From the NCBI GenBank assembly GCA_016211105.1, contig JACQSX010000050.1, forward strand, positions 59,347 through 123,346: a stretch of DNA of 64,000 nucleotides, given 5' to 3'. Origin of the DNA: Acidobacteriota bacterium. Lineage in GTDB: Bacteria > Acidobacteriota > UBA6911 > JACQSX01. Each line of letters begins with the position of its first letter. Positions within the stretch are counted from its first letter, which is position 1. The notes below the pieces were generated by a model, which made no database searches, was not told where the DNA came from, and saw only the letters and a list, made by a program, of their open reading frames with translations. Positions 5,199 through 58,919 of this stretch are shown piece after piece. The translations under genes were made by a program, and so were the position numbers.

Positions 5199-6933
5199 GA
5201 TGCTCATTGATTCCGTAATCTTGGAGGTAATCTGGAACCGGTTGCTTTCCGTGGCTAATGAGCAGCAGGATGCGCTATTGCGAACTGCGTTTAGCACGAT
5301 CGTCCGGGAGAGTGAGGACTTGGCTTGTGGTGTATTTGATCGACAAGGGCGCATGATTGCGCAGTCGTTGAGTGGAACTCCTGGTCATATCAACTCCATG
5401 GCTACATCAATGCGGCACTTCCTCGTTGCTTATCCGCAGGAGAGATTGGCGCCGGGCGATGTGCTGATCACAAATGATCCATGGATGACAGCCGGCCAGA
5501 TCAACGATATTACGGTTACAACCCCAATCTTTAAGAATGGCCGCATGGTAGCCCTGTTTGCCAACACTTGCCACGCCGCGGATATCGGCGGTCGTATTTT
5601 ATCTGCGGAAGCGCGGGAAGTGTACGAAGAAGGCCTGCGGCTGCCGATTATGAAACTATTCGATTGCGGCAAGCCAAATACGGTTCTACTGGAGATTGTA
5701 AAGGCCAATGTGCGCCAGCCAGACGAGGTCCTCGGCGACTTCCATGCACAAACGGCATGTAACGATGCGGGAGGCCGCGCGCTGCTGGAAATGATGGAGG
5801 AGTTCGGCCTAGAAAGCTTGGATGCAGTTGCCGAAGAGATTGTCTCTCGTTCGGAGGCCGCTGTTCGAAACCATATCCGTGAGCTTCCGGACGGCGAGTA
5901 CCACAGTGAGACCTGGAGCGACGGCTTCGAAGAGCCGATCGTTATCCGCTGTTGTTGCCGGATGGCGGGCGACGAAATCTCAATTGATTTTGCCGGATCA
6001 TCCCCCCAGAGCTCTCATGGGATCAATGTCGTGCTCAATTATACGCATGCTTATGCGAGCTTTGCTGTCAAGGCGGCAGTATATCCGGAAGTGCCCCATA
6101 ACGAAGGGAGCTTCCGTCCAGTACATGTTACCGCGCCGCCTGGCAGTATTTTAAACGCCATTGACCCAGCGCCAGTGGCCAGCCGCCACGCCATGGGACA
6201 CTTCATCCCAAGTGCCATCTTCGCTGCGCTGGCGGAGGCCCTTCCCGGCCGCCTTGTGGCACCCGGCGCGGACCCGATCTGGCTTAGCGTATGGCGCGGA
6301 AACAATCCTTCGTTTACCATCTCGATATTTCAGGTCGGCGGTATGGGTGCACGCCCGACCAAAGATGGCATTAACGCGATTGGCTTTCCAAGCGGCGTGG
6401 CTGGAGTGCCGGCGGAGATCATCGAAAGTCTCTCACCGCTGGTGATGCGCCGTCGGCAACTTCGCCCGGATTCGGGTGGCGCCGGCATGTGGCGTGGCGG
6501 CTTAGGTCAACTTACCGAGTTCACCAAACGGGCCGAGGGCCGCTGGAGCGTGAGTTGTATCATAGACCGCACGAAGTTTCCCGCCCCAGGTCTTTTTGGC
6601 GGAAAACCCGGCGCTCGCGGTGAATTCATTCTGGACACCGGGGCTCGTCCCAACCCCAAGGAGCAGGTAGACCTTCAACTCCACCAGGTCGTTCATCTCA
6701 ATACTCCAGGAGGCGGTGGTTATGGAGATTCCTTTGCACGCGACCCCGAGCGTGTTCGCCAAGATGTCATCGCTGGCTACATCACCCCTGAAGCAGCTAG
6801 AGATTGCTATGGCGTTATCGTCCGCTTTACAAGTAGGGAAGGTCAGCTCGTTCGACTTCCAGACCAGTGGGTGATTGACGAGGCTGCCACAGCAGAGTTG
6901 CGACGGGCCACATTGCGGCCCACCGGCGAGTGA
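5191..6933 (+). CDS. hyuB: hydantoinase B / N-methylhydantoinase B (oxoprolinase family) subunit
   Basis: ~580 aa; HyuB-type N-terminus (LEVIWNRL...DLACGVFD); ATG at 5191 overlaps hyuA stop by 8 nt (translational coupling). Confidence 0.9.
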   Translation: MPEMLIDSVILEVIWNRLLSVANEQQDALLRTAFSTIVRESEDLACGVFDRQGRMIAQSLSGTPGHINSMATSMRHFLVAYPQERLAPGDVLITNDPWMTAGQINDITVTTPIFKNGRMVALFANTCHAADIGGRILSAEAREVYEEGLRLPIMKLFDCGKPNTVLLEIVKANVRQPDEVLGDFHAQTACNDAGGRALLEMMEEFGLESLDAVAEEIVSRSEAAVRNHIRELPDGEYHSETWSDGFEEPIVIRCCCRMAGDEISIDFAGSSPQSSHGINVVLNYTHAYASFAVKAAVYPEVPHNEGSFRPVHVTAPPGSILNAIDPAPVASRHAMGHFIPSAIFAALAEALPGRLVAPGADPIWLSVWRGNNPSFTISIFQVGGMGARPTKDGINAIGFPSGVAGVPAEIIESLSPLVMRRRQLRPDSGGAGMWRGGLGQLTEFTKRAEGRWSVSCIIDRTKFPAPGLFGGKPGARGEFILDTGARPNPKEQVDLQLHQVVHLNTPGGGGYGDSFARDPERVRQDVIAGYITPEAARDCYGVIVRFTSREGQLVRLPDQWVIDEAATAELRRATLRPTGE

Positions 6934-7004
6934 TGATCATGATGCAGGAACATCATCATTCGGGGCCTATCCTAAGAAAATTATGCGAGACCAAAGTGTT
7001 AGTG

Positions 7005-7304
7005 CTAGAAAGTGCCGCGGTTTCCCTTGACTGCAGGAGTATAATGCTGCTCCAACTCTGATGCTTTGAGGCAACGCAAAACTGCATTGTTTACATCCAA
7101 GGCATATCCTCCAGTGAGACACCCCCAACTTCCACCACCGAGAATGGAACCTTGACCGACGCTAGTAGATCGCATAAAGCAGTAGTCGTGAAAGACGTCG
7201 ATGGCCACGAGATCAAAATTCGCTGGCACAAGCAAATTAGCCGTTATCAGTGGATTGTCCTTTTCGTCGCGTGGTTTGGATTTATGTTCGATCTTATGTG
7301 GCAT
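7005..7304 (-). CDS. hypothetical protein (99 aa), weak call
   Basis: Only ORF in a 440-bp gap next to a repeat element; no recognisable domain or clear RBS. Confidence 0.2.
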   Translation of the reverse strand: MPHKIEHKSKPRDEKDNPLITANLLVPANFDLVAIDVFHDYCFMRSTSVGQGSILGGGSWGCLTGGYALDVNNAVLRCLKASELEQHYTPAVKGNRGTF

Positions 7305-7374
7305 TTCTGGTTTTCTACCTGGGAGCCTTAACTATCATACCCGTTACTCTAGTATTCGCTCGAGAGACTAAGTC

Positions 7375-7641
7375 CCTCGATTCATAAGTACGGTAACGTT
7401 TGCTGGTGGAGCTTGCGAGACGAGATCCAGGAGCGATGAGGAGGCGATGCAGCGGACATCGGCGACAACGTGCGACGCCGAGATCGCCCGCAACCCCCAC
7501 CAGCCCGGAGGGTTGCGGCGGGATGGCCCCGCTTTCTTTGTCGCTCCTCCTCGCCAATGAGCCCTGCATTGACTTGTCGTCGCTTCGCGAAATCAGGGCC
7601 ATCGCGCTCGCAACAAACGTTATCGTATTTATGAATCGAGG
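7375..7641. repeat. MITE-like repeat element, copy A (~28-bp terminal inverted repeats CCTCGATTCATAA[G/A]TACG[G/A]TAACGTTTGC)
   Basis: Left TIR 7375-7403 and right TIR 7614-7641 are reverse complements; internal sequence matches the reverse complement of a second copy at 63599-63749 but carries ~115 bp of extra internal sequence. Confidence 0.6.
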
Positions 7642-7695
7642 TACGAAAGGACAGGCACTGCAACAATCGTCGCCAAAACGAGATTGGAGGCACTT

Positions 7696-8862
7696 ATGTT
7701 TAAAGGTTACGATTTCATGAACATCGACCCGCTGTTCTCTGATGAAGAAAAGATGGTGCGGCGGACGGTCAGAGATTTTGTAGAGGACCGCGTACTGCCG
7801 ATTATTGAAAAGCACAACCGGGAAGCGACCTTTCCGATCCATCTGGTCAAGGAGATGGCGCAGCTTGGATTCTTAGGGGCTAATCTTCAAGGATACGGTT
7901 GCGCCGGGATGAGCAATGTCTGCTACGGACTCATCATGCAGGAACTGGAGAGGGGAGACAGCAGCTTGAGGAGCTTTGCCTCCGTACAAGGTTCACTGGT
8001 GATGTATCCCATTCACACATTTGGATCGAAGGAGCAGAAACAGAGGTGGCTGCCACGATTGGCGGCGGGAGAGGCGATTGGCTGCTTCGGACTGACCGAG
8101 CCGGATTTTGGCTCCAATCCGGCGGGTATGCTCACTCGCGCACACAAGAGCGGGGACGGGTACGTACTCAACGGCTCGAAGGCGTGGATTACCAACGGCA
8201 ATGTCGCCGACATCGCGGTGGTGTGGGGCCGTTGTGACGACGACAAGATCCGCGGTTTTCTAGTAGAAAAGGAAACTCCTGGATTTGAGGCTCGAGAATA
8301 CAAGAACAAGTGGTCGCTGCGTGCCTCGGTTACTTCTGAACTGATGTTCCATGATTGCAGGGTGTCCGGAGATGCACTGCTATCTGGGACCGATGGCTTA
8401 AGGTCTGCCTTGATGTGTTTAACCCAGGCTCGCTACAGCATTGCCTGGGGAGCCGTAGGCGCAGCCATGGCCTGTTATCATTCGGCGTTGGAATGGGCGT
8501 TACAGCGGAAACAGTTCTCTAATAAGCCCATTGCTTCTCACCAACTGGTTCAGGAGAAACTGGTGTGGATGCTCACTGAGATTACCAAGGCGCAACTGCT
8601 TTGCTATCACCTGGGAAGATTGAAAGATCAGGGCAGGGCGACTTCTGCTCAAGTGTCTCTGGGAAAGCGCAATAATGTCTACGTGGCGCTGGAAGTGGCG
8701 CGTATGGCGCGTGATCTGCTGGGCGCCAATGGAATTGTCGACGATTACCCGGTTTTTCGCCACATGTGCAATTTGGAAACGGTAAAGACCTACGAAGGGA
8801 CCCACGATATACACACGTTGGTCCTGGGCCAGGAGATCACAGGCATTCCGGCGTTTGAGTGA
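7696..8862 (+). CDS. acyl-CoA dehydrogenase, glutaryl-CoA dehydrogenase-like
   Basis: GCFGLTEPDFGSNP and C-terminal YEGTHDIHTLVLG motifs; ATG 7696 with GGAGG 5 nt upstream (track start was TTG at 7684). Confidence 0.85.
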   Translation: MFKGYDFMNIDPLFSDEEKMVRRTVRDFVEDRVLPIIEKHNREATFPIHLVKEMAQLGFLGANLQGYGCAGMSNVCYGLIMQELERGDSSLRSFASVQGSLVMYPIHTFGSKEQKQRWLPRLAAGEAIGCFGLTEPDFGSNPAGMLTRAHKSGDGYVLNGSKAWITNGNVADIAVVWGRCDDDKIRGFLVEKETPGFEAREYKNKWSLRASVTSELMFHDCRVSGDALLSGTDGLRSALMCLTQARYSIAWGAVGAAMACYHSALEWALQRKQFSNKPIASHQLVQEKLVWMLTEITKAQLLCYHLGRLKDQGRATSAQVSLGKRNNVYVALEVARMARDLLGANGIVDDYPVFRHMCNLETVKTYEGTHDIHTLVLGQEITGIPAFE

Positions 8863-8893
8863 TTCCAACGCAAGAGCCTATCACGACTCAACC

Positions 8894-9667
8894 ATGAAGG
8901 TGGCATCGATCCAAATGAGGATAGGGGATGACGATAAAGAGACCAATCTCCGCAAGGCCGAAGAGCTCATCGACGGCGTCCAAAACGCCGATTTAATTCT
9001 GCTGCCTGAACTCTGGGCCATCGGATATTACTCTTTTGATCTTTACGCGAGCGCCGGTGAAAGTTTGGACGGTGAAATCGCGGCGCGTATGAAGGGAAAA
9101 GCCCGTCAGAAAGGTTGCTTCATTTTTGCCGGAAGTTTACTGGAGAGATCTGACGAGCAGATATACAACACGAGTGTCTTGATCGATCCCGAAGGAGAAA
9201 TCGTCGGCAAATATCGCAAAATCCACCTTTACGGACACAATTCCTCCGAGAATAAACTCTTGCAAAGAGGAACTGATATTGTTGTTGTTGAAACCAAGAT
9301 GGCATGCTTTGGCCTTTCTACTTGCTACGATTTGAGATTTCCCGAACTTTACCGCAAATTAGCGCTCCAGGGCGCAAATGTGTTCTTGGTTGCATCGGCC
9401 TGGCCGTATCCGCGCCTCGAGCACTGGTTGATGCTCAATCGTGTGAGAGCTTTGGAAAACCAAGTATTCCTAATCTCTAGCAATTGTGTAGGGACGAATC
9501 GTCAAAAACAGTTTCTTGGACACAGTATGGTGATAAACCCGTGGGGAACGATCGTGACAAGCGGTGGCGATTTAGAATGCATCTTGCAAGCGGAGATTGA
9601 TGTCAAGATGGTAGAAGAGGCACGCGCAATGTTTCCCGCTTTTACAGACAGGGTGCTGGAAGTATAA
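8894..9667 (+). CDS. carbon-nitrogen hydrolase family protein (nitrilase/amidase superfamily)
   Basis: MKVASIQM start typical of family; catalytic-region motifs LPELW and ACFGLSTCYDLRFPE (E-K-C triad context). Confidence 0.8.
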   Translation: MKVASIQMRIGDDDKETNLRKAEELIDGVQNADLILLPELWAIGYYSFDLYASAGESLDGEIAARMKGKARQKGCFIFAGSLLERSDEQIYNTSVLIDPEGEIVGKYRKIHLYGHNSSENKLLQRGTDIVVVETKMACFGLSTCYDLRFPELYRKLALQGANVFLVASAWPYPRLEHWLMLNRVRALENQVFLISSNCVGTNRQKQFLGHSMVINPWGTIVTSGGDLECILQAEIDVKMVEEARAMFPAFTDRVLEV

Positions 9668-9683
9668 CAAGAACGAGACGCAC

Positions 9684-10718
9684 ATGAAATTCGGAATAAC
9701 TCTTCCGTCTTTTACATGGCCTGGCATGGATTGTCCAATGGCCCGGCGCATCACCGTAGACATGGCCAGACGAGCCGAGGAGCTGGGATTTGACTCTCTT
9801 ACCGTATGGGACCATATGCTGAGCGCCCCAGGACTTTACGGTGGTTCCTGGTTGGATCCCCTGGTCGTGCTCGGAGGTGCGGCGGCGGTAACCAAAACGA
9901 TCCCCATCGGCACACATATCCTGGTGGTCCCCATCCGCCATCCCGTCCTGTTGGCCAAAGAACTGGCGACCATAGATTCCATCTCCGGAGGACGTCTCTT
10001 TCTGGGAGTCGGACCAGGATGGAATGAGCCGGAGTTCACCTCGATGGGCATCGCCATGCGGGAGCGCGGCCGCCGCACCGATGAGATCCTCGACGCCCTT
10101 AGGCTGCTCCTGACTCAAGACAACGTCTCCTTCCATGGCGAGTTCTTTCACTTTGATAACGTCACGATCGAGCCTCGACCCAAGAAATATTTCACCATCT
10201 GGGTAGCCGGGGGCTCGCGTGTTCCCGATCCACTTTCCCCTGACAAACCATACATGGTCAAAACCGTGCTGGAGCGCATCCTCAAACACGCAGATGTATT
10301 TACTTGCCGCGCCTCTGGAAAAACCGAATGGGTTGCGCGCGATTTCGATGCAGTGAAGCAATATCTACAATCCGCGGGACGAGATCCCAACACTCTTGGC
10401 CTGGCTCACGTACAGGCTGGATATCTCGTAGACACGGCTGACCGAGAGAAAGCTCTCTCGCTGCAGCGCAGACCGATGCAGACCATGATGGGCTCTCACC
10501 GAAGTTGGGAACATCTGCAGGAGTGCTACATGGTAGGCACCTTCGATGATATTGTAGCGCGCTTGAAATTTCTGGAGAGCAAGGGTCTAGAACACGTGAC
10601 AATCCACCCTGCGGCGCCCGAAATGGAACAGCTTGATTTGTGGATGAAGAAGATCATCCAACCAAATTTCAGAGGAAGGGATCGGCCTCAGGTGGCTAAT
10701 TATCACACGCGACATTAG
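9684..10718 (+). CDS. luciferase-like monooxygenase (LLM) family flavin/F420-dependent oxidoreductase
   Basis: 344 aa, MKFGITLP start and TIM-barrel LLM-like sequence; adjacent to F0-synthase genes. Confidence 0.75.
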   Translation: MKFGITLPSFTWPGMDCPMARRITVDMARRAEELGFDSLTVWDHMLSAPGLYGGSWLDPLVVLGGAAAVTKTIPIGTHILVVPIRHPVLLAKELATIDSISGGRLFLGVGPGWNEPEFTSMGIAMRERGRRTDEILDALRLLLTQDNVSFHGEFFHFDNVTIEPRPKKYFTIWVAGGSRVPDPLSPDKPYMVKTVLERILKHADVFTCRASGKTEWVARDFDAVKQYLQSAGRDPNTLGLAHVQAGYLVDTADREKALSLQRRPMQTMMGSHRSWEHLQECYMVGTFDDIVARLKFLESKGLEHVTIHPAAPEMEQLDLWMKKIIQPNFRGRDRPQVANYHTRH

Positions 10719-12010
10719 GTTAGTAAGCCGGTGCGGTCCCGCTTCTCTCTCCTGTGAAATCGAAATTCGTTCAGACGAGTGAGATGATGATAGGAACCAA
10801 ACCTCGTGGCGTCTTCCTCTGTCAATCGGTCAAGTGGTTCCGGCGCATCACCGTTTGGGTCATCAAATCGACGGAGCGTCTTGTACAGGGTTGAGCGCTC
10901 TACCGGAGTCCGGCCAGCGTCCCGGATGCAGCGCCGAAGATCGCTCGGCCGAACCATCTGTCCATAACTTGCGCCGGCCGCCGTCGAGATACTCTCATTA
11001 ATCAACGTGCCTCCTAGGTCGTTCGCACCGGCAGCTAAGCAAGCCTGCGAAAGCTTCATTCCTTCCTTTACCCAGGAAACCTGGAGATTGGGAATGTCTC
11101 GGTTGAGTACGAGACGACTGACGGCGTGCATCTTGAGCACTTCCATTCCAGAGGCTCCGGCTCGTACGCCCTTGACCAGACCGTCCCGGTACAAGGGCGC
11201 CTCCCAAGGAACAAAGCTCAGCGGCACAAATTCGGTGAATCCTCCCGTCCGCCGCTGCAAGTTACGAAGTAGAAGAAGGTGTCTGGCGCAATGACGCCCG
11301 GTTTCGAGATGACCATACATGATCGTGGCGGTAGTCGGGATGCCCAGCGAATGCGCAGTGGTGATCACTTCGATCCACTGGGCAGTGTTAATGCGACCGG
11401 GAGAGATCCTGTTGCGGAGCTCGTCGTCAAGAATCTCGGCGGAAGTTCCCGGTAGACTGCCGATTCCGGAAGCTTGTAATTCGGTTAGGTATTCCTTGAT
11501 GCTCATGCCGGAGCATTGCACTCCGTAAAGGACCTCCTCTGGCGAGAACGCGTGAATATGGATTTGAGGAAGTGCCTCTTTGATGGCGCGGCAAAGTCGG
11601 AGGTAGAGGTCTCCTTCCATATCCGGGGGAAGACCTGCCTGGATACAGACCTCCGTCGCCCCATAGCGCTCCGCCTCACGCGCCCGACGAATGATTTCTT
11701 CCTCGGGAAGATAGTATCCCTCCTGGCTGCGATGAGTTCTGCTAAACGCGCAAAAACTGCAGCGTTTAATGCAGACATTGGTGAAATTGATGTTGCGGTT
11801 GACCACATAGGTGACGACGTCTCCCACTTTTTCCCGGCGCAGATGGTCAGCCGCAATCAGAAGGGCGAGAAACTCAGCTCCAGTCACGGAAAATAGCCAT
11901 GTGACTTCTTCTTCCGTCAAATCCCGCTCTTCCAAGGAGCGCTGAAGAATCTGGGCCGCTTCAGAGCTGATTTCGCTCAGGAGCTTTTCAATGCCGATCA
12001 AATCTTTCAC
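10715..12010 (-). CDS. cofH: F0 synthase subunit CofH (radical SAM; 5-amino-6-(D-ribitylamino)uracil-tyrosine 4-hydroxyphenyl transferase)
   Basis: Radical SAM CxxxCxxC motif CIKRCSFCAF; CofH-like length (431 aa); GTG start at 12010, 9 nt after cofG stop. Confidence 0.85.
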   Translation of the reverse strand: MKDLIGIEKLLSEISSEAAQILQRSLEERDLTEEEVTWLFSVTGAEFLALLIAADHLRREKVGDVVTYVVNRNINFTNVCIKRCSFCAFSRTHRSQEGYYLPEEEIIRRAREAERYGATEVCIQAGLPPDMEGDLYLRLCRAIKEALPQIHIHAFSPEEVLYGVQCSGMSIKEYLTELQASGIGSLPGTSAEILDDELRNRISPGRINTAQWIEVITTAHSLGIPTTATIMYGHLETGRHCARHLLLLRNLQRRTGGFTEFVPLSFVPWEAPLYRDGLVKGVRAGASGMEVLKMHAVSRLVLNRDIPNLQVSWVKEGMKLSQACLAAGANDLGGTLINESISTAAGASYGQMVRPSDLRRCIRDAGRTPVERSTLYKTLRRFDDPNGDAPEPLDRLTEEDATRFGSYHHLTRLNEFRFHRREKRDRTGLLT

Positions 12011-12019
12011 TCCTCTGAT

Positions 12020-13144
12020 TCATGTAAAAGCCAGATACCCCTGCGGATCAGCCTCGCAGCGAAGTCGCCGGAGCAGGTGTTCGGGCAGATAGTGATCGTT
12101 CTCCACAATGTACTCGGGATAAACAGGAAAGCGGGCTCGCAGCTCAAATCCCGCGGTGTCCATCTCCCTGCGCATTCGGGCAATGTGCGGCCAGGGCGCT
12201 TCTGGATTGACATAGTCGATGGTCACCGGCGAAATCCCTCCCCAATCGTTGATCCCGGCATTCAGGTAGATCAAGTATGAGTCATTGCCATCATCGGACG
12301 CCAGGTTGGGCGGCACCTGGATATTCATCTCACCGCCGAAAATAATTCTCGCCGTTGCCACCACTTGAAGCATCTCTGCCAGCGAGGCCTCGCGGGCGTG
12401 CTCCATCGGCGTGCCTGGCTTGGCACGGAAATTCTGAATAATCACCTCCTGGATATGACCATATTGCTCTTGAAGATCCCGGATGGCAAGCAATGCCTCT
12501 ACGCGTTCCTCGACCGTCTCGCCGATCCCAATCAAAAGACCGGTCGTAAATGGAATCTTCAGCTCTCCTGCTAAACGAAGCGGCCTCAACCGTACTTCTG
12601 GCCTCTTGCTGGGAGCATACTCGTGAGGCCCACCGGCTTGACTTAAGCGTGCACTGCTGCTCTCCAACATCAGCCCCATCGAGGCGTTGACCTGCTTGAG
12701 ATCTTCGAGTTCGGAGCGACTGAGCGTTCCGGGATTACTATGGGGATAAAGAGCGGTTTCTTGGAGCACTAATGCGCACATATCGCGCAAATATTCCAGA
12801 GTGCTGTCATAACCATGTTCTCGCAGCCAAGATCGTGCTTCAGGATAGCGTTGCTCCGGCCGTTCCCCAAGCACGAACAGCGCTTCACGACAGCCCGACC
12901 TCTCACCCGCTCGCGCGACCGCCAGCACCTCCTCCGCACTCATGTACAGGTGTTCCCCTTGCTGTGGGCTTTGCCTGAAAATACAGTAACCACAAAAGTC
13001 ACGGCACAATCGCGTGAGAGGAATAAACACTTTCGGGGAGAAACTCACCACGCGACCTTTTTTTTTGTCGCGGATCGTACGGGCGGCGGCACACAATTCG
13101 TCCACATTCATGCTCGTATCAATCGCCATGTTGCCGGCTTTCAT
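12020..13144 (-). CDS. cofG: F0 synthase subunit CofG (radical SAM; 7,8-didemethyl-8-hydroxy-5-deazariboflavin synthase)
   Basis: Radical SAM motif CRDFCGYC near N-terminus, 374 aa; immediately upstream of cofH on same strand. Confidence 0.85.
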   Translation of the reverse strand: MKAGNMAIDTSMNVDELCAAARTIRDKKKGRVVSFSPKVFIPLTRLCRDFCGYCIFRQSPQQGEHLYMSAEEVLAVARAGERSGCREALFVLGERPEQRYPEARSWLREHGYDSTLEYLRDMCALVLQETALYPHSNPGTLSRSELEDLKQVNASMGLMLESSSARLSQAGGPHEYAPSKRPEVRLRPLRLAGELKIPFTTGLLIGIGETVEERVEALLAIRDLQEQYGHIQEVIIQNFRAKPGTPMEHAREASLAEMLQVVATARIIFGGEMNIQVPPNLASDDGNDSYLIYLNAGINDWGGISPVTIDYVNPEAPWPHIARMRREMDTAGFELRARFPVYPEYIVENDHYLPEHLLRRLRCEADPQGYLAFT

Positions 13145-13202
13145 GCGTTCTCACCGTTCCTGCTCGGCATGCCCGGAGTGACCAACGACCCAGATATTTA
13201 CG

Positions 13203-13877
13203 TTACTCATGCTCAAGGCCTAGCACTCGGTATCGAGCGAACTTGATTTTGTACCGGCGGTTGATCATGACGGCCAATAGAGTCATTGCTTCAAGCGCGC
13301 GACAGGCGCGCAGCGGGCCAGCATCGATCCAGCGCAGTCCCGGAATTTTAGATACCACTTCGAGCGTATGCTCTTTAGCCTCAACAGAATCGGAAGAAAT
13401 AAAATCGTCGCATTCTAACCCTATATCTCGTTTCACGAGCAAATGCGCCGGCAAAGTCTTAAATGCCGCCACCAAGGGCACACGGTCCGGAAGCCGTCCG
13501 CGAATATATTCCGCTCCTGAGCCTTCACCTAAGTCCAGCAGGCGTGGTCCCTTATCGAAAACCACGGGAACGGTGACGTCAACCAAGATTTGATTCGAGG
13601 AAAACTGGTCGCGATACTGCTGCAAAACCGAATCCACGTGGACGAAAGGCACGGTAAGGAACAACAGATCTGAGTTCGCCACCAAGGTACGATTGTCCAC
13701 TCCTGCAACTCTTTCCTGTCCCAACTGCCGGTTAAGCTCGCCAGCTACCTGCTGTGCTCGTTCCAGCGAGCGGGAGCCCAAAGCTATCTGCAGACCCGCC
13801 GCCGCTAAACGCAGCGCGATGCCTTGTCCCTCCGTCCCGGTCCCGCTGATCATTCCGATCTTACATTCCTGCTTCAT
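13203..13877 (-). CDS. fno: NADPH-dependent F420 reductase (F420:NADP oxidoreductase-like, Rossmann fold)
   Basis: N-terminal Rossmann GxGxxG and GSRS region; ATG at 13877 overlaps upstream stop as ATGA. Confidence 0.7.
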   Translation of the reverse strand: MKQECKIGMISGTGTEGQGIALRLAAAGLQIALGSRSLERAQQVAGELNRQLGQERVAGVDNRTLVANSDLLFLTVPFVHVDSVLQQYRDQFSSNQILVDVTVPVVFDKGPRLLDLGEGSGAEYIRGRLPDRVPLVAAFKTLPAHLLVKRDIGLECDDFISSDSVEAKEHTLEVVSKIPGLRWIDAGPLRACRALEAMTLLAVMINRRYKIKFARYRVLGLEHE

Positions 13878-14539
13878 TCTGCTATTTCGATAAAGTCCAG
13901 ACCCCTGCGTCGATGCCAATCGCTGGGATCCGCCAGATACTCCTTCACCTGAGCTAGCGCTTCAGAAGATAGCAAGCTGAGTGCGCGCCCCGTCTCCAGG
14001 CAGCGAGAGATTCCCACCAAAGAATGCAACTTCACGCCGACACGCGCCAGACTCGCTTCGCCCCCCTGTTCGCGGTCGACCAAAACCAGGCAACGAGAAA
14101 TCATGCATCCCGCTTCTCTGATCGCCTCAATGAATGACAGCTTGCTTCCTCCATCGGTAATCAGATCCTCAAAAAGCAGAACTTCACCTTTTGGCACGCC
14201 TTCCAGACGACTCCCGGTACCGTGTTCCTTTTTTTTCTTGCGCACATACACGAAAGGCTTGTCCAATCTTTCCGCCAACCAAGCGCCAAAAGGGATTCCC
14301 GCAGTTTCGCCACCAGCAATACAGTCGGCAGCGATCTGGCGCTCGTGATACAGGCGTTGAGCAAAGCTAACAATGACACTGCGCGTGCCCGGATAGGAGA
14401 TCAAAAGACGACAGTTAATGTAGAGAGGTGTGAAATTCCCGGAGGACAATTGAAAGGGTTCCGTGCTGCTGACCTGGATCGCCCGATGCTCCCACAACAA
14501 TATTGAGATCAGTTCCCCTATTTTCTGATCCAGTCTCAT
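13874..14539 (-). CDS. pyrE: orotate phosphoribosyltransferase-like (type I PRTase)
   Basis: FQLSSGNFTPLYINCR and PRPP-binding loop LLFEDLITDGGS; internal ATG at 14539 chosen over longer track ORF. Confidence 0.65.
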   Translation of the reverse strand: MRLDQKIGELISILLWEHRAIQVSSTEPFQLSSGNFTPLYINCRLLISYPGTRSVIVSFAQRLYHERQIAADCIAGGETAGIPFGAWLAERLDKPFVYVRKKKKEHGTGSRLEGVPKGEVLLFEDLITDGGSKLSFIEAIREAGCMISRCLVLVDREQGGEASLARVGVKLHSLVGISRCLETGRALSLLSSEALAQVKEYLADPSDWHRRRGLDFIEIAE

Positions 14540-15758: not shown

Positions 15759-16802
15759 TTAACTGCAAACAGACGGTTCATCGGCTGCATCAGGCTGGAC
15801 GACCTGTTTGATCGCTCTCAATGCCGCCAAATGGAGATGGCCGTTGGACGCGATAAGACCTTTATTGCGAGTCAGCGACCGACCGGTGGTAAAATCCAAT
15901 GGGCAGCCTTCCAGATCCGTTAAACGGCCCCCGGCTTCTTCCACAATTAGAGAGCCCGCAGTTTGATCCCAAATCCTTTCATGATAGCCGTTCCTGGTGA
16001 GCCGGAAGAGGAGGTCGGCTGCTCCTGCCGCCAGCACCGCGTACTTGGCCTGACTATCCATGAGTACTAACGGAGGGGCCACTTCCAGGACACGAACCAG
16101 TTCATTGATTTGTCTCACATTCGTATGTTCATCTTCATAGGATCGGAGCAATCGCGCCTGGCTAGGATCACTACAACAAGAGACGTGAAGACGCTGAAAT
16201 TCTGTACGGTTCAACGGAGTACTCCACGTTCCATGATCTCGAACCGCAACCAGCAACGATCCCGAATCCGGGCTGGCTTCTCCGCGACCACTCAGCAGAC
16301 TCGCTCGTCCAGACTCGATCAGCAGCCGAGGACAGCCGAGGATACCAATCTGAACCTGTCCGCTTACCACCAAAGCTAGAGCCACCACGTACTGGTCACC
16401 CCGTAGAAATCCCTTCGTGCCATCGATTGGGTCTAGCGTCCAGAACCGTTCACCTGGTGAACCACGACCGTGGTCGATCCAATCTAAAATGTTTTCCGGT
16501 GTAGCGCTGGGACGAAGGCGGCTTACAAACTGATGAACCATCGCCAGGACCGCACCCGCCTGTGGCGCACGCAGGGGGGAAGAGTCCTCCTCGGCCAACA
16601 GTGGATCGTCCGGGAACGCGGTCGCCAGAAGGTACCCCATCACAGCCTGGACCACATAATCGGCAACCGTTACAGGAGAGCGATCTTCTTTGGCCAACGC
16701 GTCACCATTCATCTCACACTGAATCTGCCGCGCCAGACAGGTGGTTTCCTTCACGGCTTGCAAGGCAAACCGAACTTCAGGGATCCGGAGGTCGAAGGTC
16801 AT
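15759..16802 (-). CDS. 3'(2'),5'-bisphosphate nucleotidase, HAL2/SAL1-like (inositol monophosphatase superfamily)
   Basis: WTLDPIDGTKGF and WDQTAG motifs; ~347 aa (longer than typical bacterial CysQ); last gene of a 5-gene operon. Confidence 0.7.
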   Translation of the reverse strand: MTFDLRIPEVRFALQAVKETTCLARQIQCEMNGDALAKEDRSPVTVADYVVQAVMGYLLATAFPDDPLLAEEDSSPLRAPQAGAVLAMVHQFVSRLRPSATPENILDWIDHGRGSPGERFWTLDPIDGTKGFLRGDQYVVALALVVSGQVQIGILGCPRLLIESGRASLLSGRGEASPDSGSLLVAVRDHGTWSTPLNRTEFQRLHVSCCSDPSQARLLRSYEDEHTNVRQINELVRVLEVAPPLVLMDSQAKYAVLAAGAADLLFRLTRNGYHERIWDQTAGSLIVEEAGGRLTDLEGCPLDFTTGRSLTRNKGLIASNGHLHLAALRAIKQVVQPDAADEPSVCS

Positions 16803-16820: not shown

Positions 16821-18032
16821 TCAGCCAATCTGAAAGAGACCGGCGGTCAGTTCCCGACAGAACACAGGCATTCGAGCCAGTTCCGCGGTTACCAGGTCAT
16901 GCATGACGCCAGAGACATCTGAAAGGCGAACTCCGGAATTGAGGTGCCCTTGCACATAAACGACTTCAGGTTGGTCAACAGGTTTGCCAATCTGGCTACA
17001 CAGCCACACGATAACTTCTTCCAAGCCGCGTATCTCGGTTTGGAGCTTATGAGCCAGTGAATACGCAAGTACATTGTAGATTTTTCCGACGTGACTCATG
17101 GGATTCTTCCCTGCTGCAGCCTCCGATCCCGCGGGACGGTTGAACGAGATCAGGCCATTGACGCGGTTGCCCCTACCCACTTCCCCAGAATCAGCATCCT
17201 CAGCAGAAGTGCCCAAGACAGATGAATAGATTCCAACCAGACCGACTCCAGGCCGATCGATAGGATTGAGCCTCAGCTTCAACTCATCCAGCGCGTCCAG
17301 CCGACTCTGTAAGTAGGCCAGAACCGCTTCATAAATCCTTGCCTTACTTCCGAAATATTTCCTTTCGCTCTCCAGATACCTTTCTATCAAAGGCATCGCG
17401 ACTGTAAGATGCAAACTTCTGCCGGTCCGCACACCCATCACCTTGACATCTTCTCCCGTTTCCGCAAATTGCTTTTTGAAGCTCTCCGAGTTCAAATAGC
17501 GTTCGGTCTCTAATACCAGACGCTCAGTCTCACTTAGAGGAGCATAGCCCACTGCGGCAGAGGTGTCGTTGGCGCCGATCACGCCGTCGGCGCGTCGGTA
17601 CAAGTCCGCCAGCGCTTCCGATCCCGGCTTTAGCTCTACTTCATAATGTAAATGGCGATCGGGATCAACGTGGCGTAGGTTCTTTCGCACCCAGCCCTTG
17701 GCCGCTTCAATCGCGATGCTCTCCACATCTATTTTCTGTTCCGCCCAAAATGAGGTGGCCCGATCCCCAAGGATGAGGCGCATCGGCTCTAAAATGCGGC
17801 CTCCGCCCCATCGATGTTCTGCCCGACCCGCGATCAAAAGCGCTTTATCGCAGTTATAGTGAAGCATACCGCCTGCTTGCTCCAAATAAGCCTTCGATAG
17901 AGCCTGCGATACATTCTCCATAATACCGTCACACACTGTATCGGGATGACCCGTTCCTTTTCGCTCCACAATCTCCACTTCAAGCTCGCTGGTCTTCAGT
18001 CCTTGCGCCTGCTCGATATATATCCGGTTCAT
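16821..18032 (-). CDS. archaeal-type S-adenosylmethionine synthetase (methionine adenosyltransferase, MAT family)
   Basis: ERKGTGHPDTVCDG, GANDTSAAVGYAPLSETERLVLETE, GRGNRVNGLIS, GKNPMSHVGKIYN motifs match the archaeal MAT family rather than bacterial MetK; AAGGA RBS before ATG 18032. Confidence 0.8.
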   Translation of the reverse strand: MNRIYIEQAQGLKTSELEVEIVERKGTGHPDTVCDGIMENVSQALSKAYLEQAGGMLHYNCDKALLIAGRAEHRWGGGRILEPMRLILGDRATSFWAEQKIDVESIAIEAAKGWVRKNLRHVDPDRHLHYEVELKPGSEALADLYRRADGVIGANDTSAAVGYAPLSETERLVLETERYLNSESFKKQFAETGEDVKVMGVRTGRSLHLTVAMPLIERYLESERKYFGSKARIYEAVLAYLQSRLDALDELKLRLNPIDRPGVGLVGIYSSVLGTSAEDADSGEVGRGNRVNGLISFNRPAGSEAAAGKNPMSHVGKIYNVLAYSLAHKLQTEIRGLEEVIVWLCSQIGKPVDQPEVVYVQGHLNSGVRLSDVSGVMHDLVTAELARMPVFCRELTAGLFQIG

Positions 18033-18043
18033 GGCTCTATTCC

Positions 18044-18583
18044 TTAGAGATACCCCTGTTCCCGCAGTTTTTCCACTACCCTGCGAGCGGCCCTGGCCGG
18101 ATCCTCCCACTCTCCGGAAACCACCACTTCAGGATTTTCGGGAGGTTCGTAGGCCGCCTGCAAGCCGGGAATCATCGTTGCCTCCCCCACCTCGGCCTTA
18201 CGGTAAATCCCCTTCGGATCTCTGGCCATACATATGTTCAGAGGGCACTCAACAAAAACTTCGATAAACCTTGTGATGCGCTGCCGGGCGCGATCCCGAT
18301 AGACGCGCCGGTTAGCGGTGGCATCGAAGATCACAGAAATCCCGTGTTTGGTAAGAAGCTCTCCAACATAGGCCATCGCCCCATACAAGATTTCTCTCTC
18401 CCCTTCACTGTAAGTTGGATGAGGGGTAAGGATCTGGCGCAACGCGTCAGATTCTAACACCTCCGGCGCCGTTTCTCTGCAAGATAGCTCCCGGACCAAG
18501 GCCTTGGTGAGTGTAGACTTTCCAGAAGCCGGCAAACCGGTGATCCAGATTGCAAACCCCGGTTCCACGCTTAACTCCCACAA
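18044..18583 (-). CDS. cysC: adenylyl-sulfate (APS) kinase family protein
   Basis: P-loop GLPASGKST and C-terminal FIEVFVECPLNICMARDPKGIYRKA resembling APS kinase. Confidence 0.75.
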   Translation of the reverse strand: MWELSVEPGFAIWITGLPASGKSTLTKALVRELSCRETAPEVLESDALRQILTPHPTYSEGEREILYGAMAYVGELLTKHGISVIFDATANRRVYRDRARQRITRFIEVFVECPLNICMARDPKGIYRKAEVGEATMIPGLQAAYEPPENPEVVVSGEWEDPARAARRVVEKLREQGYL

Positions 18584-19659
18584 TAGCGATTGACCTGCTC
18601 TGGATCAAAAGCTTGGGACTCAAGCACCGCCCGAGCAAAGGCAAATAGCTTTTGGCGCACGGTTTCTCTCAAGGTCGGATACCACACGGGGCTGGCCATG
18701 ACGAGCGCTCGAAAGGCAAAAAATGGCGCGGCCACCTCTAGAATCTGCTGTTCACCACTCCCTTGCAAATAACGTTCCCAGAATCGACGAAACAGAATCT
18801 CCAGGTTTCCTTCCAGACGCTCGCCGCGCTGAAGCGAAAAGAACAGGTAGTTCATTGTCAAACTTGCGACATCGTCGGCCGGCTCACCCCACTCCCCGCG
18901 CGCGCGATCCAGAACGGTGAAGTCGGTTCCCTCACGAAACAATATATTCCAAGGGTGAAAATCTCCATGAACTTGGCGAAGTCGATGGGTATAAGACTTA
19001 AGCTTCCAACGCCAACGCACGCAGAAATGCTCGATCTCTTCCAGCAGTCTCGATGTTATAAAGCCAAATCGCGCCGGATAACCATCCAGAATGCCCATGA
19101 TACATTCTCCGTGGCCAACCAATTCACGGACGCGACGAATATAGAGTTCCGGGTCGCGACCGCGCTCGCGGTGGATTTCAACCAAATAGTTGCACAGGGC
19201 ATCCGCTCTAGCAGTATCCAGATCGGCGAGGCAGCCGCCATCTCGCAGGCGTTCGAGGTCATGGAAATACTCTTGACCGCTCACATATTCGTTTAAGATG
19301 AAGAACTCTCGCACGTCTCGTAAGGAGAGGAGTTCCCCTTCTTTACCAAAACCTCCTACATCCAGACTGTGGGCATGCTGAGGCAATTGGTTGTAAGTAT
19401 GGTGACTCCAGAGTAATATCCGCGCTCGATCTGCCATATGCTGATGATCAAAAGGACCTGGACTGATCGTTTCCAGCACCACCGACTGACGCCGGCCAGA
19501 AACTTCGCATTCCAAACGAACCGGGACACCATAGCCATAACCTTTGAGCGCCTCCGACGAGCGCGGTTCCCCCAGCAAAGACACACCCAGAAGTCGGACA
19601 CGCTCCCTGAAGACGGACGATAGATAGACCTGCAATTTACTTTCATCCAACTCGAACAT
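18571..19659 (-). CDS. APH-fold small-molecule kinase (aminoglycoside phosphotransferase / choline kinase superfamily)
   Basis: Catalytic HGDFHPWNILF motif; internal ATG 19659 preceded by GAGGTGA; 13-nt gap after radical SAM gene. Confidence 0.7.
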   Translation of the reverse strand: MFELDESKLQVYLSSVFRERVRLLGVSLLGEPRSSEALKGYGYGVPVRLECEVSGRRQSVVLETISPGPFDHQHMADRARILLWSHHTYNQLPQHAHSLDVGGFGKEGELLSLRDVREFFILNEYVSGQEYFHDLERLRDGGCLADLDTARADALCNYLVEIHRERGRDPELYIRRVRELVGHGECIMGILDGYPARFGFITSRLLEEIEHFCVRWRWKLKSYTHRLRQVHGDFHPWNILFREGTDFTVLDRARGEWGEPADDVASLTMNYLFFSLQRGERLEGNLEILFRRFWERYLQGSGEQQILEVAAPFFAFRALVMASPVWYPTLRETVRQKLFAFARAVLESQAFDPEQVNRYCGS

Positions 19660-19672
19660 TTTCACCTCAGCC

Positions 19673-20791
19673 TCACGTCCACTCGGGAAGCGCCTGCTTA
19701 CGTTCTGCAGGGTCCCGGCCGGCCAGCCCAACCCCGTCGATGCGAGCGCCACAATCCGGGCACTGAGAATCTTCCATGTAACTTTCCAACACCGAAAGTC
19801 CGTATCTTGAGATCAAGACTCGTTCGCACTGGTAGCAATAACTGCTTTCGCCTACCTCCCCTGGAACGTTGCCTAGGTAAACATACCGGAGCCCCACGTC
19901 CAAACCGATCTTCCGGGCCTTACGGAGAGTGCTCACAGGAGTCCTTGGCGTATCGACCATTTTGTAGGCGGGATAGAACTGACTAATATGCCAAGGGATA
20001 TCGTCGCCCACGCTCTTGAGGAACTGAGCAATCTGCCTCAACTCGCGGTCGGAGTCATTGCAACCAGGGATGACCAAGGTAGTGACCTCAATCCAGATTC
20101 CCAGTTCCTTGTACCTTCGGATCGAGTCCAGCACAGGTTGCAACCTGGCGCCACAGATCTTCTTATAGAACTCGTCTGTGAACCCTTTGAGATCGATGTT
20201 GGCCGCGTGAAGATACGGCCGGATGGTAAGCAGCGCTTCAGCGCCGATATACCCATTAGTGACAAACACATTCTTCAGCCCTTCTTTGGTCGCACATCGC
20301 GCCGTATCATATGCCAGTTCAAAAAAGACGGTCGGCTCAGTATAAGTGTAAGCAATCACCTCACAGCCAGAGGCTTTCGCCGCCTGCACGATTTGTTCGG
20401 GAGTGACCTTTTCCCCAGGAATTCCTCCCTCAAACCGAGAGCGGATTGGCTGGAGATCCCCCCAAAGAACTTCCGCCTTGTGGCGGTGAGCCCTTTTTGG
20501 ATATTGCGCAATTTCATAGTTCTGGCAGAAAAAGCAACGGAAATTACATCCCACCGTCGCAACAGAATATGCTCTCGCGCCGGGATAAAAATGAAAAAGT
20601 GGCTTCTTCTCGATCGGATCAATTTCTCGCGATACCACCCGATCGTGGACGAGGGTATAGAGTTGTCCGCCATGGTTGACCCGGACTCCGCAAACACCCG
20701 GCCTCCCCTCCCCTATACTGCAGAAATGGCTACAGAGGGTACACCGGACTCGGTCGCCGGCCAGTTTCTCGTAGAAAAGTGCCTCCCTCAT
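19673..20791 (-). CDS. AmmeMemoRadiSam-type radical SAM enzyme (PFL-activase-like)
   Basis: N-terminal FYEKLAGDRVRCTLCSHFC plus radical SAM CNFRCFFCQN; family-typical layout. Confidence 0.8.
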   Translation of the reverse strand: MREALFYEKLAGDRVRCTLCSHFCSIGEGRPGVCGVRVNHGGQLYTLVHDRVVSREIDPIEKKPLFHFYPGARAYSVATVGCNFRCFFCQNYEIAQYPKRAHRHKAEVLWGDLQPIRSRFEGGIPGEKVTPEQIVQAAKASGCEVIAYTYTEPTVFFELAYDTARCATKEGLKNVFVTNGYIGAEALLTIRPYLHAANIDLKGFTDEFYKKICGARLQPVLDSIRRYKELGIWIEVTTLVIPGCNDSDRELRQIAQFLKSVGDDIPWHISQFYPAYKMVDTPRTPVSTLRKARKIGLDVGLRYVYLGNVPGEVGESSYCYQCERVLISRYGLSVLESYMEDSQCPDCGARIDGVGLAGRDPAERKQALPEWT

Positions 20792-21509: not shown

Positions 21510-22034
21510 TTAGTCCCTGTGCCACGACACGCGGGCGAGCTCATTTTCATGAGAGAAATCATAGCGTACTTTGCCACTGAAGGCCTTTTCCAACGCATGA
21601 CCAAGTCGTTGCGCAAGGTGTTGCGTGGTCGTTGAAACAACGAGCCGACCGCTCTCATCCGTTTCCCATTTCATGATCCGGGCCAACGGATTATCCTCAG
21701 CCGCTCGATCAGCTTCGTTTCTAAGAAGTCGGCGTACTTCGTTACGGTGCGTTTCCAGGAAAGCACCCTCCAGATAGAGAAAGCCACGCGGAATCCCCAC
21801 CTTTTGCTGTTGGCAAGCTGGACAGACGACAGCTTGCGCCGGATGCCAGTGCTTGTGTTTGCGATTCCCTTTCCGAACCTCGGCGGCAGCCACCCAACGT
21901 CGGTCGGAGTAAACTGCACCGCACACATTGCACACTTCTGGTTCCACAGGGGCACGCGGCGTATGGTGGCGTCCCGCCTCGTGATCCACACGCTTGGTGA
22001 AGGTGGCGTTTGTATATCGCTTACGGCTTCGCAT
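21510..22034 (-). CDS. zinc-ribbon protein, function unknown
   Basis: Two CxxC pairs (CNVCG...CPAC); AAGGAGG 5 nt upstream of ATG. Confidence 0.55.
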   Translation of the reverse strand: MRSRKRYTNATFTKRVDHEAGRHHTPRAPVEPEVCNVCGAVYSDRRWVAAAEVRKGNRKHKHWHPAQAVVCPACQQQKVGIPRGFLYLEGAFLETHRNEVRRLLRNEADRAAEDNPLARIMKWETDESGRLVVSTTTQHLAQRLGHALEKAFSGKVRYDFSHENELARVSWHRD

Positions 22035-22678: not shown

Positions 22679-24322
22679 TTAACTGGCCTCCGTCGGCGTC
22701 AACAGCGACTTCAACCCCCGTATCTGGCCGGCGCGGCGGAGCTTGCGCAGTGCCTGCTTTTCAATTTGACGAATTCTCTCTCGAGTCACCGAGAATCTCT
22801 CTCCCACTTCCTCCAGCGTGCGTTCACTGTCATCCCCAATTCCAAAACGCATGCGGATAACCTGCTCTTCTCGCGGAGTCAGCGTTTGCAGCACCACTGC
22901 GGTTTTCCCCTTCAGGTCACTGGTAAGAACTGACTCAACAGGAGAAACGGCACGACGATCCTTGATAAAGTCACCCAAGTGATCGTCTTCCTCTCCGATA
23001 GGCGTTTCTAAAGAGACCGGCTCTTGGGCAATCTTCAACGTCTCTTGAACCTTCCAAACAGGAAGCTCCAACTTCTTGGCAATCTCCTCCGACGTTGGTT
23101 CCCGCCCATATTCCTGCACCAAGCTGCGTGAGACTCGGACCACTTTGTTGATCGTCTCCACCATATGAACAGGAACACGGATCGTACGGGCCTGATCCGC
23201 AATCGCCCGCGTGATCGCCTGACGGATCCACCACGTCGCATAGGTGCTAAATTTATACCCCCGTCGATACTCAAACTTATCGACCGCCCTCATCAACCCA
23301 ATGTTGCCTTCCTGAATCAAATCCAGAAACTGCAGCCCACGGTTCATGTACTTCTTGGCGATGGAAACGACCAGCCGCAGATTGGCCTCTACCATTTCCT
23401 TCTTGGCAATGTCGGCCTCCAACTCCCCAGTCTTGATTGCCGCGAGTGCCCGCTTCAACTCTGGCACGCTTTGCAGCGCCGATGCCTCAATCTCCTTCAT
23501 TTCCCGTCGAATCTGTCGCAAACGCATCTTGATCTTCTTGTGCTCCTCCCGCGCTAGTGGACCTTTTTGCAGCCTCCGTAAGGTTAGCGACTCGCGTTGC
23601 AGAGCCAGTAGCCGGTTGACCCGCAACTTGATCAAGTCAGTCAAATGAGCGCGCGTACCTGCCGCCATCTCCAAATTGCAAATCCGATGGGCCATAGCAA
23701 CACGCAAACGCGCCAACCGATAGAGGAATCTCTTGTAGGGGGAGGATCCTTTGCGCACTCTCTCCAGCTTCTTGCAAAGCCGAGCCGCTTCCGTTTGCAG
23801 CTCCACAATTCCTCCCACAACATGCAACACTCGCCGGCAGTGTTTCTCAGTAGCCTTGTCGCTGATCTCTTCTTCACGAAGCTGGATAAAATCTTTAAGT
23901 TCATGCTCACCCCGGCGCAGCGCCTCCCCTGTCTTGATGACGTCGTTGACCACTAGAGGACAGCGCGACAATGCCTTGAGCACGGTATTTTGGCCCCGCT
24001 CGATGCGCTTGGCAATCTCCACTTCCCCTTCCCGGCTCAATAAGGGAACCGCTCCCATCTCGCGCAGGTACAATCTAACAGGGTCGGTGTCTTGCCCCAG
24101 CTCTTCAAATTCAAGCTCCGATTCTTTCTCCTCCCACCCTTCCTCAGGGTGATCGGCTTTCCTTTGAGCGCCTGGAAGTCTGGTCTCCAAGCTCGCGATT
24201 TCATCGACCGCTCCCAATAAGCCAAACGCGCCCTCTGGAGCCACCAAAAACTGCCCAGGGTAACGCCGGATGTCGTCGCTCTCATCGAAGTGTTGCTTCT
24301 TTTCTTTGCTGAGGTCGATCAA
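22679..24322 (-). CDS. rpoD: RNA polymerase sigma-70 factor RpoD
   Basis: Regions 2-4 conserved ([53 protein letters not shown]); TTG start. Confidence 0.9.
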
Positions 24323-53572: not shown

Positions 53573-53618
53573 ACTGCCGTTTGATCTTTTCATTCATCCA
53601 GCGGTAAGGAGGTGCACG

Positions 53619-55277
53619 ATGACGGTTGGAAAAACCGCAGCTCTCTCTTTTTTGTGTCTGTTCGCGACCTCGCCAACGCCGATTTGCGGTCAGGAGGTAA
53701 CGCAGTATCTGCCGCAGATAGCCGACGGGGGAGGAGCGATCACAACGTTTTTTACAGTGAACCAGGCGGAGACAGCAGTCACTGTGACCATTGACGCGTT
53801 TTCTCCCGACGCGTCGCCTATGTCGGTGTTGAGTACAGGCAGTTCGGTGACATTTACACTGCCAATCGGAGGTTCCGCCTTTGTTAGAACATTAGGGTCG
53901 TTGGGCGGCTTTTCTCGCGCCGGTTTTGCCCGAGTTCGCTCCAGCGGGATGACGGGTGTGGCCGCAATCTTCCAGTTTTTTGATGCTGGTGGAAATCTCC
54001 TGTCAGAAGCGGGCGTGTTGCCGTCGCCACTAGTAAAAGGGTTTTCCATAACGGCGGCCTTCAGTCCTGCCCAAGGAGTGAACACCGGCTTGGCGGTAGC
54101 GAGTCCTGTGAGCGACTCGAATTTGACGCTCTCGTTGATGAACCCGGACGGCAGCGTGCGCAGGACGGCCAGTTTGAGTGTGCCGGCCGGAGGACAGAGG
54201 GCGCGGTTTCTAAGCGAGACGACTCCGCCGCTGTTTACCGGATTGGATGTGATCTATGGCGCAGTCAAAATCACCAGCGATGTCCCGGTTGCTCCGGTGA
54301 CACTGCGGACGGATGGAACGCAGTTGACCACCGTGCCGGTGATTACTCCCACGCTTGAGGCACAGGGACCGTCCGGGCCTGCGGGTCCGCAAGGTCCAAC
54401 AGGCCCCACTGGACCTCAGGGGCCTGCAGGTCCGCCGGGTGCCCCCGGGCCCGCAGGTCCAGCAGGCGTCAGCGGCCCACAGGGGCCAGCAGGCCCAACC
54501 GGCGCCACCGGGTCCGCAGGTCCAACCGGCGCGACCGGGCCTGCAGGAACCTTTTCACCCGGTGCCAGTATCGAGGGTTCGACCGCCTCGGCGCTGATTA
54601 CCTTCACCAACAGTGGAACCGGCTCAAGTGTTTATGGTTTGCACAGCAGCTCCAGCGGAACTGAGCCTGGCCTGCGAGGGGAAACTTACTCAACCCAGGC
54701 AAGTGCGGCTGGGATGATTGGAAGGGTAAGAGCTGCCTCGCCGGGTGGCTTCTCTGCTGGAGTCCGAGGAATTAATGAGGGGACCGGCAGCCAGGGTATT
54801 GGAGTCTGGGGATCGCAAAACGGTAGCGGCTGGGGACTCTACGGTACCTCAGTTTCTGGTAGGGGAGTCTTTGGGACGTCTGATGCCGGAGTCGGCGTGT
54901 ATGGTACGTCTGAGTCCTCCTTCGGAGTTGTTGGGAAAACGTCCACCGGGTCCGGTGTGCTGGCAGAAAGTAGCAGCCCAGACGGGAGCGCCCTTGAAAT
55001 CAGAAACGGCGCCATCAAAGTGTCAGGCAATCCCAAACCGGCCTTTGTTCACACCAGCAAAGGGAAGAGTTTGAGAACGTACATTGACCATCCGCTGACC
55101 AATGGAAAACCGAATGCCATTCTGATCGTCACGCCTGTTGGCGGCAACTACACAGCACGAGCTGTTGGGGTGGAATACGATAGTGACTCTAATTACCAGC
55201 AATGGACAATCTATAACCTCGATTTTACAGACCAGGCGGTTGGCCAGCGATTCAACGTCCTTGTTATTCAACAGTGA
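53619..55277 (+). CDS. secreted collagen-like (G-X-Y) repeat protein with N-terminal copy of the shared surface domain
   Basis: ~20 Gly-X-Y triplets ([25 protein letters not shown]...); signal peptide; AAGGAGG RBS. Confidence 0.8.
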
Positions 55278-55278
55278 C

Positions 55279-58836: not shown

Positions 58837-58919
58837 CTTTAATTTTCCCGATCCCGGAGGCGGCACTCTCCGGCAAATCGAGGTGTCATTTGGCGCGACG
58901 CCATCGCCTGCTCTATCCG

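Follow-up and report, generated by a model that had tools for sequence, protein, structure and literature searches.

Two types of methionine adenosyltransferase (MAT, SAM synthetase) have been described. The canonical enzyme of bacteria and eukaryotes, MetK, and the archaeal type catalyse the same reaction and share the overall fold and the catalytic histidine of the GHPD motif (PMC1282579, PMC3853416). The distribution of the two types between the domains was characterized as an "almost perfect anti-correlation" (PMC2481427), and the archaeal family has been treated as an archaeal cluster (bioRxiv 10.1101/2020.08.17.254151). In the structure of the Thermococcus kodakarensis enzyme (TkMAT), the catalytic residue is His33 within GHPD, and the methionine carboxylate is bound by His62, Asn64 and Asn161, which are specific to the archaeal type. 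The ribose and the methionine amino group are bound by Asp201 and Asp283, the adenine stacks on Tyr271, and a hydrophobic position is occupied by Leu145 (PMC3853416). In the literature searched, we found neither a paper describing an archaeal-type MAT in bacteria nor activity data for any bacterial member of the family PF01941.

Here we describe an archaeal-type MAT gene of an Acidobacteria-affiliated bacterium and its relatives. The stretch of DNA analysed, 64 kb in length, is referred to as the window; other loci are designated by L numbers. The gene belongs to a tight string on the minus strand, given here in the order of reading:

19673..20791, minus strand, AmmeMemoRadiSam-family radical SAM enzyme (TIGR04337, 340.7 bits against a cut-off of 220; PF04055)
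18571..19659, minus strand, APH-like phosphotransferase with a eukaryotic-like kinase fold, 362 aa (weak match to PF01636, 29 bits, in the catalytic loop alone)
18044..18568, minus strand, APS-kinase-like P-loop kinase, 174 aa, with an open reading frame extensible to 18583 (PF01583, E 1e-36)
18041..18045, minus strand, Shine-Dalgarno box AAGGA, 8 nt before the ATG of the MAT gene and overlapping the TAA stop codon of the upstream kinase gene
16821..18032, minus strand, archaeal-type MAT (SAM synthetase), 403 aa (PF01941, NF003363, archaeal PDB matches, conserved active-site residues)
15759..16802, minus strand, HAL2-type 3'(2'),5'-bisphosphate nucleotidase, that is, a PAP phosphatase (TIGR01330, 280.1 bits against a cut-off of 267; PF00459)

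Identification of the MAT gene

The open reading frame spans positions 16821..18110 of the minus strand, and its translation holds all four motifs quoted in the preliminary description of this DNA: ERKGTGHPDTVCDG, GANDTSAAVGYAPLSETERLVLETE, GRGNRVNGLIS and GKNPMSHVGKIYN. The true start of the gene is the ATG at 18032. The resulting length of 403 aa is that of nearly all MAT homologs and of an independent gene call in another assembly of the same organism.

The preliminary description had taken the protein for an archaeal-type MAT and not a bacterial MetK, and had proposed alignments to the Pfam families of both types and a phylogeny of the enzyme. The assignment was borne out. The sole Pfam match is PF01941 (AdoMet_Synthase), at E 9.8e-148 and 492.6 bits against a cut-off of 27. 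It is an end-to-end match, with residues 3-398 aligned to positions 2-394 of the 395 positions of the model. The curated NCBIfam equivalog NF003363 (PRK04439.1-2, methionine adenosyltransferase) yields 575.8 bits against a cut-off of 557, and thus the protein passes near the lower edge of the model. Among all PDB sequences, the only matches are S-adenosylmethionine synthase chains (4l4q, 6s81, 7p83 and 4hpv, E 1e-94 to 1e-82), which correspond to the Thermococcus, Pyrococcus, Methanocaldococcus and Sulfolobus enzymes, respectively. The homology to these archaeal MATs (T. kodakarensis 4L4Q, P. furiosus 6S81/6S83, M. jannaschii 7P83, S. solfataricus 4HPV) extends over the full length of the window protein.

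Canonical MetK (TIGR01034; PF00438, PF02772 and PF02773) is clearly different. The Pfam and NCBIfam scans revealed no match of the window protein to the three MetK domains or to the MetK NCBIfam model, and the signatures GAGDQGxxxGY and G[GA]G[ASC]FSxK[DE] are absent. A BLASTP comparison with an approximate E. coli MetK sequence aligned the GHPD region alone (E 0.009). The strings GAGDQG and GGGAFSGKD do not occur in any of the six reading frames of the window, which contains no metK.

Active site

The residues shared by the archaeal MATs and the window protein are the GHPD histidine, the His/Asn/Asn ligands of the methionine carboxylate, the two ribose-binding aspartates and the stacking tyrosine. 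In the alignment to 4l4q, TkMAT positions His33, His62, Asn64, Leu145, Asn161, Asp201, Tyr271 and Asp283 correspond to H29, H58, N60, L141, N155, D195, Y269 and D281 of the window protein, so that all of them are present. H29 is located in GTGHPDT and is invariant in 81 relatives. The other mapped positions are likewise invariant in the 37 bacterial and 44 archaeal relatives, except for that of Tyr271, which is Phe in four archaea. One difference from TkMAT lies in the flexible loop, where Asp144 is replaced by Ala in the window protein and by Glu in most bacterial relatives; this position is variable in archaea too. Given the conserved residues, the window MAT is predicted to be catalytically competent, and would convert ATP and L-methionine to SAM, PPi and Pi.

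Distribution and phylogeny

An identical protein is already present in NCBI nr as [quoted passage not shown]. The next-best relatives in nr (60-65% identity) come from Methylomirabilales, Deltaproteobacteria, Binatia and similar MAGs and are all bacterial, whereas identity to the nearest archaeal sequences is about 50-53%. A scan of GTDB with one genome per species yielded 574 relatives, the best of them 60% identical to the window MAT. The best 80 of the 574 were analysed as loci. As judged by the record titles, 36 of these 80 loci are bacterial and 44 archaeal. Among the bacterial loci are those of Nitrospirota (Nitrospiria), Thermodesulfovibrionia, Desulfobacterota (with Geobacter), Binatia, Methylomirabilota, Armatimonadota, Nitrospinota, an actinobacterium and Phycisphaera; the archaeal loci come mainly from Bathyarchaeia, Hadarchaeia and Aenigmatarchaeota.

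The trees, all constructed by neighbour joining and with a weakly supported deep topology (bootstrap 55-59%), place the window MAT among bacterial sequences. Its clade, with a bootstrap of 59/100, unites it with sequences from Deltaproteobacteria, Methylomirabilales, Binatia and their relatives. When the Thermococcus, Methanocaldococcus and Sulfolobus enzymes are used as the outgroup, the ingroup consists of all bacterial and Bathyarchaeia-type sequences, and the bacteria form two groups. Unlike the archaeal MATs of solved structure, the window MAT thus has a bacterial host and falls into a separate ingroup with bacterial and Bathyarchaeia/Hadarchaeia sequences. As the deep branching order is weakly supported, we do not claim any direction of transfer.

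In the Nitrospiraceae MAG UBA6905, two contigs each carry an archaeal-type MAT gene (L051, 6123-7316, and L064, 10001-11194). The two genes have diverged, and their products form a sister pair in the tree; they may be paralogs or may reflect a mixed bin.

The archaeal-type MAT of the Nitrospirota locus L078 scores 656 bits with NF003363, and thus the NCBI annotation pipeline already covers the bacterial clade. Since a large clade of such enzymes spans many bacterial phyla and is already annotated, the window MAT is an ordinary gene, a member of old bacterial PF01941 clades spread over many phyla, and no one-off acquisition. With so many bacteria among the best 80 loci, the identical protein annotated and the clade covered by a curated model, the suggestion that such an enzyme is unusual in a bacterium is not supported.

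Gene neighbourhood

Adjacent genes of the string are separated by gaps or overlaps of 11-18 nt. The MAT gene is 11 nt away from the upstream kinase gene and 18 nt away from the downstream nucleotidase gene. To judge from the tight spacing, in particular the 11 nt on its upstream side, the MAT gene is probably co-transcribed with its string. The scan for SAM and other riboswitches revealed no Rfam family at the gathering score anywhere in the window and hence no regulatory RNA; there are no tRNAs in the window, and scans for promoters and terminators gave no signal above that of shuffled sequence.

The product of the HAL2-type gene has a score of just 89.7 against 228.8 with the CysQ model. HAL2/MET22 is a yeast-type enzyme. 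Farther downstream of this gene there are genes encoding a CBS protein, a PyrE-like phosphoribosyltransferase, NpdG, CofG and CofH. The F420-related cluster, at 9684-13919, comprises a luciferase-like monooxygenase, CofH and CofG (both radical SAM) and the NADPH-dependent F420 reductase NpdG. Just upstream of the operon, a zinc-ribbon protein of the BCAM0308 family (NF040826, 130 bits) is encoded at 21510-22034 of the minus strand; its homologs are found directly after the MAT gene in L001 (11257-11736) and just before the kinase pair in L160 (5000-5395) and L163 (5569-5961).

The surroundings had been described as bacterial, and they are. The window contains a sigma-70 ORF (547 aa, 22679-24322), a sigma-54 activator, NarL- and OmpR-type response regulators, histidine kinases, a TolC-like OEP, an HlyD-type MFP and a TetR regulator. 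The region 50972-58965 encodes large probable surface proteins: an 866-aa ORF lacking a Pfam match, a 552-aa protein with collagen triple-helix repeats and DUF7452, and a 1228-aa protein with SdrD B-like and RTX repeats.

The order APH-like kinase, APS-kinase-like kinase, MAT recurs in Methylomirabilales (L083, GCA_046758505.1), in GCA_030157145.1 (L084), in a Nitrospiria MAG (L019) and in three metagenome contigs (L086, L088, L093). The kinase family comprises 814 clusters at 50% identity. In nearly all of the 80 metagenome loci with sufficient room, the APS-kinase-like gene follows the APH-like gene. Some proteins combine both kinases in a single chain, in one order or the other, and in some cases also contain HD or CBS domains. 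However, MAT lies 3' of the pair in 3 of the 80 loci and a HAL2-type gene in one; conversely, the pair is present in one of the 36 bacterial MAT loci from GTDB. The constancy of the pair, the fusions and the rarity of MAT indicate that the kinases are an independent coupled module, in which MAT is an occasional passenger. A functional link between MAT and the kinase pair was considered as a general rule and rejected on the count of 3 in 80 loci; it holds only within the subclade of the window, where the MAT lies in a tight string with the two kinases. A HAL2-type homolog was observed directly 3' of the pair in L087.

Members of the APH-like family are 60-70% identical across phyla, and the window protein has no match in NCBIfam. 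Its AlphaFold model is poor (pLDDT 60), with weak Foldseek matches to choline/ethanolamine kinases (E 0.02-0.06), and a profile search of PDB produced APH(2'') at E 0.03. The structure searches are consistent with a putative kinase fold and silent on the substrate. The APS-kinase-like protein has 136.7 bits with TIGR00455, just under the cut-off of 138.7, and its best PDB matches are 7yq0 and 8a8h; by its name, entry 8a8h is an APS kinase from Methanothermococcus. Standard CysC has LDGDxxR and SxxSPYR where this kinase has LESDxxR and FDATANRR, respectively, and the latter motifs are invariant in 66 members. The commonest neighbours of the pair resemble tandem Usp, macro-domain, CCA/poly(A)-polymerase-like and CBS proteins, by labels read from sequence.

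The neighbourhoods of the bacterial MAT genes themselves (about 40 loci) are lineage-specific and have no neighbour in common. For instance, two recurrent genes upstream of MAT in the Armatimonadota-like clade resemble dxr and ispG, the labels again being read from sequence. Such varied contexts with no shared partner fit a stand-alone core gene.

Main or additional SAM synthetase

It is likely that the window gene encodes an archaeal-type MAT which is the general, housekeeping-level SAM synthetase of this Acidobacteria-affiliated bacterium, belongs to old bacterial clades and is not a recent import. The enzyme would then make SAM from ATP and L-methionine for general use. We infer the housekeeping role from the absence of a common neighbour in the bacterial MAT loci and, indirectly, from locus L078, where a MetK-fold gene is degenerate and the archaeal-type MAT gene is intact. 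Two observations do not sit easily with it. Firstly, the kinase-kinase-MAT order in several phyla (the window, L019, L083, L084, L086/L088, L093) could mean a specific functional tie. Secondly, the enzyme occurs in MAGs labelled as Geobacter, Phycisphaera and Actinobacteria. Cultured members of these groups normally have MetK, which hints that the archaeal-type gene can be a second copy.

A tblastn of an approximate E. coli MetK sequence against 1.8 Mb of the loci analysed gave a single match, located in L078 at 5 kb from the archaeal-type MAT gene. The encoded protein passes TIGR01034 with 372 bits and belongs to a subfamily conserved in Nitrospirota (72-95% identity). Compared to E. coli MetK, GAGDQG in this subfamily is replaced by (A/V)(R/K)NQVT and GGGAFSGKD by SGAALSGKD, and the equivalent of Asp238 is His. 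The gene always directly follows a gene of a P-type cation ATPase of roughly 1050 aa, itself preceded by DUF5132 and HMA_2 genes. The corresponding regions are L078, 473-4846, and L166, L167 and L168, about 5000-11200, in Nitrospirota and Thermodesulfovibrionales. Although annotated as a methionine adenosyltransferase, the paralog is probably not an ordinary SAM synthetase, to judge from the substituted motifs and the constant ATPase neighbour.

We considered L078 as a case of co-existence of MetK and the archaeal-type MAT and rejected it: as the MetK-fold gene is a degenerate paralog tied to the P-type ATPase, the locus does not cleanly demonstrate a pair of functional SAM synthetases. If anything, it points to the archaeal-type MAT as the working enzyme there, an indirect indication from a clade other than that of the window.

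The best surviving alternative is that the genome also contains a canonical MetK, and that the archaeal-type enzyme is a second, specialised MAT, supplying SAM under particular conditions, such as stress or a sulfur/adenosine-nucleotide programme, and co-regulated with the kinase pair and the PAP phosphatase. This seems unlikely, even though the kinase-kinase-MAT order is shared by Acidobacteria, Methylomirabilales, Nitrospiria and some unassigned MAGs, and the usual neighbours of the kinase pair (tandem Usp, macro domain, CBS, as labelled above) look related to stress or adenosine. The MAG UBA6905 with its two copies, and the occurrence in taxa that normally have MetK, are also in line with a second enzyme. 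However, the association of MAT with the kinases is as rare as 3 of 80 loci from one side and 1 of 36 from the other, the window lacks a regulatory RNA, and the one MetK of canonical fold that was found near an archaeal-type MAT has degenerate catalytic motifs.

Radical SAM enzymes

Far less probable is the proposal of the preliminary description that the MAT is a dedicated source of SAM for the radical SAM enzymes in its vicinity. There are indeed three radical SAM genes within about 6 kb of it, namely the AmmeMemoRadiSam gene (19673-20791) and the CofG/CofH genes 4-6 kb downstream (12020-13144 and 10715-12010), and in L084 the block is likewise preceded by an AmmeMemoRadiSam gene. But the genes in question are not adjacent, as the AmmeMemoRadiSam gene is two genes upstream of MAT, with the two kinase genes in between. 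Of the seven loci with the kinase-kinase-MAT block, it is present in the window and L084 and missing from L019, L083, L086, L088 and L093. All-against-all clustering of neighbours revealed no conserved radical SAM gene across about 40 bacterial MAT loci, and homologs of CofG and CofH were found in none of the first 80 MAT loci. SAM is a diffusible general cofactor, and we know of no precedent for a private SAM synthetase.

The AmmeMemoRadiSam protein of the window matches TIGR04337 in two stretches, so that an internal insertion is possible. No AMMECR1 or Memo family match, and hence no co-location of the kind that characterizes the AmmeMemoRadiSam system, was found among the Pfam-scanned ORFs of the window. 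In many loci of Bathyarchaeia (L025, L029, L031, L040, L042, L043, L055, L070), an AmmeMemoRadiSam-like gene lies about 6-10 kb downstream of MAT on the opposite strand, with products 37-44% identical to that of the window. This proximity probably reflects synteny within the lineage and not a functional tie.

Recent acquisition

A recent horizontal transfer from an archaeon, with replacement of MetK in this particular organism, is hardly credible: the family is typical of archaea and the MAT types are reportedly anti-correlated between the domains (PMC2481427), but the archaeal relatives are more distant than the bacterial ones, the flanking genes are bacterial and syntenic with those of other bacteria, and the composition of the gene is native, with GC 0.531 (z -0.8) and GC3 0.557 (z -1.3) lying within the spread of 38 window genes. 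The earlier suggestion of a horizontally acquired MetK replacement could hold only for an old, lineage-wide event.

Discussion

Taken by itself, the window gene is a correctly annotated, already known SAM synthetase and matters very little. The pattern to which it belongs is of modest use, as the "archaeal" MAT family is common in public bacterial MAGs, while the papers searched still call it archaea-restricted (PMC2481427; bioRxiv 10.1101/2020.08.17.254151).

A more far-reaching reading, which we put forward tentatively and consider possible but rather doubtful, is that a broad range of bacteria (Nitrospirota, Desulfobacterota, Methylomirabilota, Acidobacteriota, Armatimonadota and further phyla) rely on the archaeal-type MAT as their principal SAM synthetase. 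MetK would have been displaced there long ago, the MetK left in some of them being a repurposed, catalytically degenerate paralog such as that next to the P-type ATPase in Nitrospirota, and in the subclade of the window the MAT would in addition be wired to the two-kinase module. If so, the textbook split into archaeal MAT versus bacterial and eukaryotic MetK would be overturned.

The mesophilic bacterial members of the family might be of interest to those who use the promiscuous archaeal MATs as biocatalysts. For the family as a whole, the pattern bears on the question of whether non-orthologous displacement between domains has also affected SAM synthesis.
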